A stretch of 64,000 nucleotides of DNA from Candidatus Heimdallarchaeum endolithica (GCA_021513715.1 CP084167.1:256001-320000), one strand, 5' to 3'; shown: positions 52,868 through 58,442, numbered from the stretch's first letter. Numbers and translations: made by a program. Notes: generated by a model not told the origin, from the letters alone.

Positions 52868-53648
52868 TGTATACTCTACCCACGTTGGTAACAAATAAAT
52901 AGAAGTAGTTATGTGAGTAAGTGATAAAACATGAATAAACCCGAACCTAACTTGAAAAATTAAGAAAGACTGTGGTTAAAAAAAGCTTTGGAAGGAGAAA
53001 AGAGAAGAAAAAGAGTTAGTTCACGACTATAGGGGGAGTAGGAAGTTTGTGTAGAAGTAAGTGGTTGAAAAAGATTTAAGGAGAACTATGAAAGAGAATG
53101 GTTAGTGGAAAAATAGACCCTACAGACCTAGACTATACACAGGAAAGTGAATGAGGAGTTAAGAGAGAGGTTAAGGGAGTTAAAGGTAAAACAAGGAATG
53201 AATGTGGAGAAAAAAATAGCTTATCTGTTGAAGAAAGAAGGAAGAGGATTATCGCGAAATACAATAACTAAAGTAATAGGAGAGTTAGGTTTTCCTCTGT
53301 TAAGTAATAGGAAAAAGAGAAACAGGACTCGATACAAGAGATTTGAGAGAGAAAAACCTAACGAACTCTGGTAGTTAGATGGGAAAGGACAATTCTGGGT
53401 AGAAGAAAAAGGATAGATTACATTGTCACCTCATAACTCTCTTAGATGATCACTCACGATTCTGCTTAGGTGCTAAACACAACCCCTTTGCACCGAAAAA
53501 AGAACAGATAATAAGTTTGCTAGAAGAAGCAATAAAAAAAAATGGACAGCCTGAGTCTATCCTCACGGACAATAAAACACTCTTCTCCACCGTTAGAGGA
53601 ACTAGATTCAATTTTTCAAATATATGTTGCTTTTCTTGGAGAATAACA
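52868..53648 (+). mobile_element. Decayed, internally deleted IS481-like element (copy 1)
   Basis: TGT..ACA ends (TGTATACTCTA; reverse complement of right end TGTTATTCTCCA); fragments RFEREKPNELW*LDGKG, ITLLDDHSRF, PESILTDN; several stops and frameshifts. Confidence 0.8.
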
Positions 53649-53689
53649 AAAAAAAAGTAAGAGTTGTTCTTCTTTGATTCTTGAAGTGT

Positions 53690-55369
53690 TCATATTTTAC
53701 CTGTTTTATCCCATGTATCAAATTGCTTTTGGAGTTTTTCCAGAGTTTCATCTATTTTTTCATGACTCGTTGTACTAAACACAATATATTCTCTATCTAC
53801 AGTTATAGCATACTCTTCAGGAAGCTGATATAACCAGTTTAAAAAAGCGTCTTCATCTGGAAAACCTAATAACGAAGATAACTTCTCTATAGCTATACTC
53901 TTTGTACGTTTTATTACTTTTTGAAGTCCTTGTAATCGTAACCTCTCTCACTTTAGTTCAAGCATTTCTTGCTTTCGTTCCAGCCTTTTTATAGTCTGAA
54001 TATTAGCTAGAACAGTGTCAAAATACTTATTTAAATCAGTTTGTAACCTCTCTTGCTCTTATTTTAGCTCTGTTTCTTTTTCCTCAATAAATAATTTCTT
54101 AACTTTATCTTCAGTTAAAACGTCCAACTGACTTTTTTCAATAAGTTCTTTTAATGGAGATAAATTTATCTCTTTTAAATGATTTTTAGACAAATCCAAT
54201 ATAGTTAGATTTGTACAGTTTCCCAATGGCTTTAAATCTATCTCTTGTAATTTATTTTCAGACAAATCCAATGCTGTTAGATTTGGACAGCGTGATAAGG
54301 AAGATAAATCAATAGATCGTAAATCATTACTAGACAATTGCAATTCTGTTAGATTTGTACAGTTTGCTAATGGGGTTAGATCTATTGATTGTAAATGATT
54401 GTCCCTTAAAATCAATCCTTTTAGTTTTGTACAGTGTGATAAGGGAGATAAATCAATAGATCGTAAATCATTGCTAGACAAATCCAACCCTTTTAGTTTT
54501 GTACAGTGTGATAAAGGAGATAAATCAATAGACTCTAAATAATTGCTTTCTAAATAATTGCTAGATAAAAGAAACCATTCTAGATTTATACAGTGTGATA
54601 AGGGAGATAAATCAATAGATCGTAAATCATTGTCAGACAAATCCAACCCTTCTAGATTTGCACAGTGTGATAAGGGAGATAAATCAATAGATCGTAAATC
54701 ATTGCTAGACAATTGCAATTCTGTTAGATTTATACAGTGTGATAAGGAAGATAAATCAATAGACTCTAAATGATTGTCCCTTAAAACTAACCCTTTTAGT
54801 TTTGTACAGTGTGATAAGGAAGATAAATCAATAGACTCTAAATGATTGTCAGACAAATACATTTTTCTTAGATTTGCACAGTGTGATAAGGGAGATAAAT
54901 CAACAAATTGTAAATAATTGTTAGACAAATCCAATGCTGTTAGATTTGGACAGTGTGATAAGGAAGATAAATCAATAGATTCTAAATGATTACCAGACAA
55001 AGACAATTTAGTTAGTTTTGGACAGTGTGATAAGGAAGATAAATCAATAAATTGTAAATAATTGTTAGACAAATCCAATGCTGTTAGATTTGGACAGTGT
55101 GATAACGGGGATAGATCTATCTCTTGTAATTTATTTCCATCCAAAGAAAACCATTCTAGATTTACACAGTGTGATAAGGAAGATAAATCAATAGATTCTA
55201 AATAATTACCAGACAAAGACAATTTAGTTAGTTTTGTACAGTTTACTAAGGGAGATAAATCAATAGATCGTAAACCAGTGCCAGACAAATACAATTCTTT
55301 TTCTTCTGTATCTATTTCTTTAATAAATGTTTTACCGTTAACATTTTTTCCTCTTATTTTTATTTTCAT
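53690..55369 (-). pseudogene. LRR protein A (16 LRRs); open ORF 54059..55369, C-terminal domain cut off by two in-frame stops
   Basis: 22-aa LRRs; TAA at 54059-54061 (CAA in the paralog) and TGA at 53948-53950; the frame then continues to ..DTWDKTGKI* at 53690. Confidence 0.85.
54170..55300 (-). repeat. 66-bp coding tandem repeat array (LRR-A)
   Basis: Recurring cagtgtgataaggg/aagataaatcaataga at 66-bp period. Confidence 0.9.
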
Positions 55370-55443
55370 TGTTAGTAGTTTTATTACTTTTTTATTTTAA
55401 ATATTTTTATTTTATTTAAAGAATTGTATAATCTACGCACGTT

Positions 55444-56293
55444 TGTATACTCCACGCACGTTGGTAAGAAATAAATAGGAAGTGGGTTATGTGGATAAGT
55501 AATAAAACATGAATAAACCCGAACGTAACCTAGAGACTAAGAAAGATTGTGGTTAAAAAAGCTTTGGAAGGAAAAAGGAGAAGATAAAAGAAGTAGCTCA
55601 CAGGTTTATGGTGTATAGGAAGCTTAGATATAAATGGATGGAAAAAGTTAAATTAAAAACTTGAATAAGAATAAGGAAAGGTAGATCTTCCAGACTAAAA
55701 TATACAAAAAAAGTAGATGAAGTGTTAAAAGGAGGATAAGGGAGCTAAGGGTAAAACAAGAAATGAACGTGGAGAAGAAAATAGCTTAACTATTGAAGAA
55801 AGAAGGAAAAAACATTATCCTGAAATGCAATAACTAAAGTAATAGACGAATTAGGTTTTCTTCTGTTAAGTAATAAGAAAAAGAGAAACAGGACTCGATA
55901 CAAGAGATTTGAGCGCTTATCTCCTAACGAACTCTGGTAGTTAGATGGGAAAGGATAATTCTGGGTAGAAGAAAAAGGATAGATTATATCGACTCCTCAT
56001 AACTCTCTTAGATGATCACTCACGATTCTGTCTAGGAGCTAAATCCACCTTAATCTGTATTTTAATATTGGCACAAATATTAATGGTGTTAGTGATCACT
56101 CACGATTCTGTCTAGGAGCTAAATCCACCCCTTTACACCGAAAAAAGAACAGATAATAAGTTTTCTAGAAGAAACAATAGAGAAATATATACAGCTTGAG
56201 TCTATCCTCACAAACAATGGAGCACTCTTCTCCACCGTTAGAGGAACTAGATTCAATTTTTCAAACATATGTTGCTTTTCTTGGAGAATAACA
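55444..56293 (+). mobile_element. Decayed IS481-like element (copy 2)
   Basis: Colinear with copy 1, with the same ends and the same W*LDG stop, plus an 80-bp duplication/insertion. Confidence 0.8.
56013..56129. repeat. 37-bp perfect direct repeat flanking a 43-bp insert
   Basis: tgatcactcacgattctgtctaggagctaaatccacc at 56013-56049 and 56093-56129; single diverged copy in IS copy 1. Confidence 0.9.
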
Positions 56294-58182: not shown

Positions 58183-58229
58183 TATTAGTAGTTTTACTAC
58201 TTTTTTATTTTAAATATTTTTACTTTATT

Positions 58230-58339
58230 TAGTACTTCCGAATTATCTCAAAAAGTATGAATTGAGAACACGCCAATGATAGTATGAACGCCTATAATTT
58301 TAACCTATAGAAATCGGTCAACTTATTGCGGAAGTACTA
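58230..58339. mobile_element. 110-bp MITE with TIR TAGTACTTCCG and 6-bp TSD TTTATT
   Basis: TAGTACTTCCG..CGGAAGTACTA; tttatt at 58224-58229 and 58340-58345; empty site in the paralogous promoter at ~55411. Confidence 0.85.
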
Positions 58340-58372
58340 TTTATTTAAAGAATTATATAATCTACGTACGTT

Positions 58373-58442
58373 TGTATACTCTGCTCACGTTGGTAAGAAA
58401 TGAATAGAAAGTGGGTTATGTGGATAAGTGATAAAACATGAA
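58373..58442 (+). mobile_element. Left end only of IS481-like element (copy 3)
   Basis: tgtatactctgctcacgttggtaagaaat..gataaaacatgaa matches copies 1 and 2, then similarity stops. Confidence 0.75.

Follow-up and report, generated by a model that had tools for sequence, protein, structure and literature searches.

Remodelling of leucine-rich repeat genes among dead insertion sequences in an accessory insertion of Candidatus Heimdallarchaeum endolithica

Structure and extent of the insertion

The window analyzed here, a stretch of 64,000 nucleotides of the Candidatus Heimdallarchaeum endolithica genome (GCA_021513715.1 CP084167.1:256001-320000), carries an array of two leucine-rich repeat (LRR) genes and three IS481-type left ends (Table 1). 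An earlier note on this DNA had placed the array at 52868-58442. The alignment with the sister genome of Ca. Heimdallarchaeum aukensis ran to position 52766 and resumed at 58797, indicating a larger insertion of 6,030 bp (52767-58796). A 9-bp target duplication borders the insertion and is present in one copy only at the empty site of aukensis. The array sits inside a split IS6-like element, the ends of which were found at both borders of the insertion; the interior holds the IS481 relics, the LRR genes, a MITE-like repeat and a piece of a further multicopy repeat. In total, four different families of dead repeats occurred within about 6 kb, three of them besides IS481.

Table 1. Features of the insertion and its borders (positions counted from the first letter of the window)
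Feature	Position	Strand	Remark
Target-site duplication, left copy	52758..52766	+	single copy at the sister species' empty site
IS6-like element, left end (positions 1-102 of 763 bp), degraded terminal repeat	52767..52867	+	84% to intact copies
IS481 relic R1 (IS positions 1-715), with frameshifts and stops	52868..53600	+	
Tail-coding DNA of unit 1, severed from LRR1 by TAA	53690..53965	-	
LRR1, 436 aa: N-cap, 16 repeats of 24 aa (one with a 5-aa duplication), C-cap, no tail	54059..55369	-	
IS481 relic R2, mosaic: left end R3-like, right half with derived changes common to R1	55444..56245	+	
Tail in LRR2: PCI-like winged helix and terminal helix	56335..56586	-	common to ~26 other reading frames of the genome
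LRR2, 615 aa: two fused LRR modules (11 + 7 repeats, each with its own caps) and PCI-like winged-helix tail	56335..58182	-	
Multicopy MITE-like insertion, 116 bp, upstream of LRR2	58224..58339	.	~19 near-identical copies; absent from the MAG allele
IS481 left end R3, 70 bp only	58373..58442	+	
Fragment of another multicopy non-coding repeat, truncating R3	58437..58664	+	repeat of at least 270 bp, ~16 full copies
IS6-like element, right end (positions 627-763), intact terminal repeat	58661..58796	+	85% to intact copies
Target-site duplication, right copy, one mismatch	58797..58805	+	

Members of the IS6 family are 700-900 bp long and have short GG-tipped terminal repeats, a single DDE transposase and an 8-bp duplication. 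Elsewhere in the genome, the IS6-like element was found in about 10 full copies of 763 bp, with GG-tipped repeats and 9-10-bp duplications. Its length and GG tips were compatible with IS6, and its transposase reached 42.7 bits against the IS6 model, far under the cut-off of 125. The insertion point of this element lies between a DMT/NIPA-type gene and a hydrolase gene. Dispersed repeats made up about 4.5% of the genome. In addition, 11 transposase families with up to 27 copies are noted in PMC8813620.

The right junction of the insertion was 100% identical in two short-read contigs. The site was also empty in contig L076 (98% identical to aukensis) and in contig L077, whose identity to a MAG of the endolithica type was 99.6-99.9% at a distance of a few kb but 92-94% beside the empty site. 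The empty site in aukensis, L076 and L077 indicates that the array belongs to the accessory DNA and that its presence probably varies within the species. Literature searches returned no description of this locus, and a promoter scan gave a result at chance level (33 versus 28.3 +/- 4.7).

Two further regions of the window were recorded. A resolvase-family gene with two small ORFs (60728-62345) lies 2 kb from the insertion; aukensis-type contigs that have the empty site carry this region too, so it does not belong to the array. Moreover, 45712-48444 encodes a surface protein of 910 aa that is conserved in the sister species; its N-terminus resembles that of archaeal pilins, and about eight beta-sandwich-like repeats lie in its interior.

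The two LRR genes

The two paralogous LRR genes described in the earlier note were confirmed as minus-strand ORFs of 436 and 615 aa, and so were their repeat numbers (16 versus 11+7). The repeat unit is 72 bp in both genes; two repeats of LRR1 escaped the repeat pattern and were recognised by their spacing. The absence of a signal peptide was also upheld, as the hydropathy maxima over 19 residues were 0.73 and 1.23, with no hydrophobic N-terminus and no membrane helix in either protein. Pfam returned LRR families only for LRR1 and LRR2, with no NTPase or known effector domain, and neither protein has space left for an NTPase. In exact look-ups, no match was obtained for LRR1, for LRR2 or for the left flank. 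Both frames were open in both complete alleles, with no stop or frameshift in 3.15 kb, beside relics that are riddled with them.

A tail of about 70 aa had been taken as shared by the two genes. This was true at the DNA level only; at the protein level, LRR1 stops before the tail, with an in-frame TAA (54059-54061) after the C-cap followed by a TGA (53948-53950), both ahead of the tail. The TAA was present in all six alleles seen (this genome and five others), and the TGA was private to this strain. Only LRR2 is a repeat-plus-tail protein, and LRR1 is a tail-less derivative. In other strains (contigs L064-L067), the detached tail of unit 1 formed an open frame of 91 codons from its own ATG; to judge by this frame, the tail could be made there as a stand-alone module, or it could be drifting, with several amino-acid changes.

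IS481 relics and the live family

Members of the IS481 family are defined by an IS481 transposase and TGT...ACA ends. The intact 312-aa transposase of the 1010-bp element scored 233.9 bits against the NCBIfam IS481 model (cut-off 224). The family is live: the genome contains 25 full-length copies, and the 312-aa frame is intact in 12 of them. The target duplications of these elements were unusually long, 14-17 bp in 20 of the 25 full copies (e.g., genome positions 1774569-1775578).

Within the array, three IS481 left ends lie in the same orientation, beginning at 52868, 55444 and 58373. The claim that both LRR genes are bounded by direct IS481-like relics thus stood as to number and orientation, with the reservation that the third is a 70-bp end. 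R1 and R2 have a common W*LDG stop, where intact IS481 copies have WQIDV, and both break at IS position 715 of 1010 into the same LRR 3' flank, in agreement with the common stop and common deletion reported before. R2 also carries a strain-specific 80-bp duplication at 56013-56092. It had been concluded that the IS was dead before the unit was duplicated. The common truncation fits this order of events; the common stop could also have spread by conversion, because in other strains a relic-2-type tract sits at 53348-53481 of R1. Reassignment of the stop codon was rejected, since intact IS481 copies read Gln at this position and the strain-specific TGA is CGA elsewhere.

The PCI-like tail

The structure prediction proposed for the tail was run and gave a model (pLDDT 73.5) of a winged helix followed by a long helix. 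The five best structural matches were PCI-type chains (Z 8.1-8.5), with a Foldseek E of only 0.04; the closest was Rpn12 (Z 8.5, rmsd 1.3, 54 aligned residues), and CSN and eIF3 subunits had Z of 8.2. At the sequence level, the score for the PCI domain PF01399 was 15.8 bits, below the cut-off of 22, and weak matches to PF01399 were obtained for 7 of 20 tails (best E 0.00044). The tail search at full length gave no match, and the sequence search of solved structures found nothing below E 0.046. The modelled fold is the same winged helix plus long helix as in the PCI domains (PF01399) of proteasome lid, COP9 signalosome and eIF3 subunits. In contrast to those subunits, the tail lacks the helical-repeat part and is joined to LRRs and membrane proteins. 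HTH/PCI domains on archaeal multidomain proteins have already been reported (PMC10936438).

In this genome, about 26-27 reading frames end in the tail, and many of these encode large proteins with N-terminal hydrophobic segments. It was present in 14 of the 41 related genomes searched, and 398 relatives were found among protein representatives, with a predicted membrane helix in 67 of the best 150. From the predicted fold, we infer that the tail may dock on partners that are also used by other tail-bearing proteins. Furthermore, eight large proteins (845-1170 aa) are clustered at genome positions 611845-640183, most with hydrophobic N-termini and all ending in the PCI-like tail; IS481 copies interrupt the cluster at 625 kb and 632 kb. 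Conserved pairs, in which a tail-bearing soluble protein is followed by a short LRR protein with a truncated tail, occur at 481040-482632 and 789008-790876 and have orthologs in the sister species.

Variation between strains

A misassembled or collapsed copy, which would have undone the earlier account, was contradicted by an independent MAG that has both units with equal repeat counts (16; 11+7). Its contig L065 showed the same order and the same lengths of 615 and 436 aa, and lacked the MITE and the 80-bp duplication of R2. The unit number (two) and the repeat counts were equal in both complete alleles. Between this genome and L065, LRR1 differed by 1.9%, the two modules of LRR2 by 2.65% and 0.5%, and the left flank by 1.4%; divergence over the insertion was 0.2-3%. 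The right flank (58806-63900) was 9.4% diverged from L065, against 1.4% for the left flank and 0.2-3% for the insertion; together with contig L077, this divergence points to replacement of alleles by recombination around the site.

The locus was not invariant, and the strains differed by patch copying between repeats. For 30 of the 43 LRR codons changed between this genome and the MAG, an exact 15-mer donor was found elsewhere in the array, compared with 3% for random changes, and the repeats are therefore being patch-copied. The two tails of this genome had one difference in 325 bp, and those of the MAG had a common change that is absent here; the constancy of the tails is therefore concerted evolution. 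The constant tail of the earlier note was not sustained, as the LRR1 tail was lost in every allele and the likeness of the tails came from gene conversion and not from shown selection. A diversity-generating retroelement was rejected, as the changes were not adenine-specific.

Two contigs suggested larger changes. Contig L066 had a different repeat order, with a crossover in about 21 identical bases, and ends at the contig edge; the variant could be real and is only a hint. Contig L058 contained a join of R2 to LRR1. Taken alone, this join resembles a triplication junction and could be a real copy-number variant. Contig L078 from the same metagenome matches the MAG at 100% identity and stops at the point from which the two units are identical, and the join is a probable assembly chimera.

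Paralogs and association with insertion sequences

The genome has eight further LRR genes or gene remnants of the same type, at distances of 20-127 kb from the nearest IS481 piece. An association of the relics with the whole family, on which the earlier account depended, was thus contradicted. A ninth LRR gene, with a different repeat type, lay 1.1 kb from an IS481 piece. Moreover, of 19 LRR loci in relatives, none had an IS481 or IS6-like transposase closer than about 1.5 kb.

The regions of the close paralogs at 653, 794 and 1900 kb were missing, replaced or rearranged in the sister species. The 653-kb and 794-kb paralogs were broken by stops and frameshifts, and the 1900-kb paralog had no tail. 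This is an accessory LRR subfamily in birth-and-death turnover. Tail-less LRR proteins conserved between both species were found elsewhere in the genome. In addition, a nearly wholly deleted second remnant (792651-792847), in which the N-cap is joined to the tail end, lies 1.2 kb from the 794-kb paralog. A 6.8-kb insertion at about 1898985-1905820, beside a SecY-like gene and absent from the sister species, contains a tail-less LRR paralog between ORFs of 213 and 1087 aa that have near-identical C-termini; no multicopy repeat was found at its ends.

Origin of the duplication

Compared with the 25 full copies, R1 and R2 had about 24 derived states in common in alignment columns 301-720 and four in columns 1-300, where they were 56-89% alike. 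R2 was 92% identical to R3 over 103 bp, upstream flank included. The array has the marks of an IS-mediated tandem duplication, namely direct repeats round each unit and a hybrid middle copy. The mosaic R2 would be the hybrid expected from unequal crossing-over between two differing IS481 copies around one LRR gene. The proposal that the relics serve as recombination substrates was borne out by this mosaic and by the relic-2-type tract in R1.

The following course of events is proposed. An IS6-like element entered between the DMT/NIPA-type and hydrolase genes and left the 9-bp duplication, as the borders of the insertion show. IS481 copies would then have invaded on both sides of an LRR-plus-tail gene. 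This gene would have been copied from a locus resembling the 794-kb paralog, to which homology spans 53621 to 55423, flanks included. Unequal crossing-over between the flanking IS481 copies, suggested by the mosaic relic, would have given the order IS-LRR-IS-LRR-IS, and a third LRR module would later have been fused into LRR2. Comparison of the alleles shows that short gene-conversion tracts still move among the repeats, between both tails and among the relics, and that a fixed stop cost LRR1 its tail. The reshuffling would be a by-product of repeated DNA. By uniform chance, an LRR gene would have IS481 on both sides in about 0.1% of cases (a rough estimate from 40 pieces in 3.33 Mb). Such an arrangement is unlikely by chance, so that the capture was not a random placement; the point was counted against the best explanation.

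Possible selection at the concave face

Among the 28 internal repeats, pN/pS was 1.67 at the concave positions (about 2 against the overall pS) and 0.09 at the core; the values are pairwise, come from recombining repeats and are suggestive only. The nearest repeats differed by 2-19 of 72 nt, and the array showed the HNWD-like pattern of near-identical repeats with hypervariable positions on the ligand face. A like concave ratio (1.78) was obtained for the 653-kb paralog, which has no IS481 within 20 kb. The concave ratio of about 1.7-2 resembles the outcome of diversifying selection on a binding face in the past, and the repeat pattern makes the best, if suggestive, case for a role in recognition. 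According to a previous study, repeat proteins in general show faster divergence among their paralogous repeats (PMC5120217).

Between this genome and the MAG, 31 of 39 changed repeat codons (79%) altered the amino acid, compared with 78% expected from random repeat-to-repeat copying. The five concave positions received 7 of the 31 amino-acid changes versus 41% expected (p 0.04, which is optimistic, as the tracts are not independent), and core positions received 2 of 34. No binding-face excess of changes was seen in the two full alleles available. The changes between strains are not directed at the binding face.

Possible function and alternative explanations

We consider it likely that IS copies assisted the capture and duplication of the gene and that ordinary gene conversion followed; in this explanation, LRR2 is a likely binding protein and LRR1 a tail-less derivative. 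To judge by its fold, LRR2 is probably a working cytoplasmic binding protein, and a protein ligand would bind to its LRR face. The diversifying repertoire for recognition or defence that the earlier note put forward found no support: both complete alleles had the same unit and repeat counts, the LRR1 tail was lost everywhere, the changes between strains were not aimed at the binding face, and PADLOC matched neither LRR1 or LRR2 nor the tail or flanking genes to a described defence family. The strains do vary at this locus, and there is no sign of a dedicated immune-like diversification system.

Selected variable sensors like the fungal NLRs would need no special enzyme: shuffling would give new specificities, the PCI-like tail would signal, and the IS relics would change the copy number. 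Near-identical repeats with hypervariable concave positions, as in the fungal HNWD genes (PMC13449251), are consistent with such sensors, as are the same pattern in the non-IS 653-kb paralog (1.78), presence/absence polymorphism with strain-level repeat conversion, and the position of the tail behind membrane helices of large surface proteins. We nevertheless regard this explanation as rather unlikely, given the lack of an NTPase or known effector domain and of a PADLOC match, the loss of the LRR1 tail, the under-representation of binding-face changes between strains, equal repeat counts in both full alleles, and the generally fast divergence of paralogous repeats in repeat proteins (PMC5120217). 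A subfamily of cytoplasmic LRR sensors, with near-identical repeats reshuffled under selection for altered ligand specificity, which would signal via a PCI-like tail shared with surface receptors, gain copies through the IS relics and use tail-less copies as decoys or modulators, is an unlikely reading.

The whole insertion might also be non-functional debris, with both LRR genes as decaying passengers whose frames are open merely because they are recent. Four dead repeat families in 6 kb, the lost and drifting LRR1 tail and the broken 653-kb and 794-kb paralogs agree with decay, and the low divergence of the insertion (0.2-3%) gives little power to show constraint. Debris is quite improbable, however, with 3.15 kb of LRR frame intact in either full allele beside riddled relics, the core hit by only 2 of 34 amino-acid changes, and tail-less LRR proteins conserved between species elsewhere. 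A programmed cassette system, in the manner of agnathan VLR assembly or antigenic-variation gene conversion with the relics as dedicated handles, is scarcely credible: direct repeats do flank both genes and recombine, but the insertion has no silent cassette library, no dedicated enzyme and only two genes, other paralogs have no IS link, and the relics go on decaying and take new insertions.

Under capture, duplication and ordinary conversion, the locus is a well-resolved case in which dead IS copies and internal repeats remodel the gene of a repeat protein, in an archaeon closely related to eukaryotes. Gene conversion is seen at the strain level, and the significance is modest, since neither mechanism is new. 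Selection on the binding face, if it were true, would make the locus matter much more, as fungal-NLR-like repeat shuffling would then be coupled to a PCI-type module in Asgard archaea.

Comparison with known systems

NLR (STAND) receptors join a NACHT or NB-ARC NTPase to repeats; no NTPase is joined to the repeats of LRR1 or LRR2. Agnathan VLRs start from an incomplete germline gene with a flanking cassette library and have a secreted or anchored product, whereas here the ORFs are complete, the insertion contains no cassettes and the proteins have no signal or anchor. Agnathan VLRs, TLRs and NLRs have the same LRR solenoid with variable concave residues; unlike them, the proteins described here have no signal peptide, anchor, TIR or NTPase and undergo no cassette assembly.

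The fungal NLR/HNWD sensors (PMC13449251) share with this locus near-identical repeats with few hypervariable positions, repeat exchange between paralogs, transposon association and presence/absence polymorphism. They differ in that the genes here encode no NACHT/NB-ARC or death effector, have LRR instead of WD40/TPR repeats, and show no binding-face excess between strains. In arrangement, the array resembles IS-flanked tandem duplications formed by homologous recombination between direct IS copies, such as the IS-mediated, RecA-dependent duplication of Burkholderia thailandensis (PMC9946442) and the IS26 arrays (PMC7986276). They have the same cargo between direct IS copies, the order IS-gene-IS-gene-IS and a hybrid middle copy. 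In contrast to these, the array described here has dead IS copies that resemble one another at only about 82% and lie within an IS6-like element. Furthermore, the mobile element HeimM2 of the same genus (PMC8813620) likewise carries an internalin-like LRR gene as cargo of mobile DNA; it is 8 kb long, lies between a 16S rRNA and a tRNA gene and has a homing-endonuclease-like gene.
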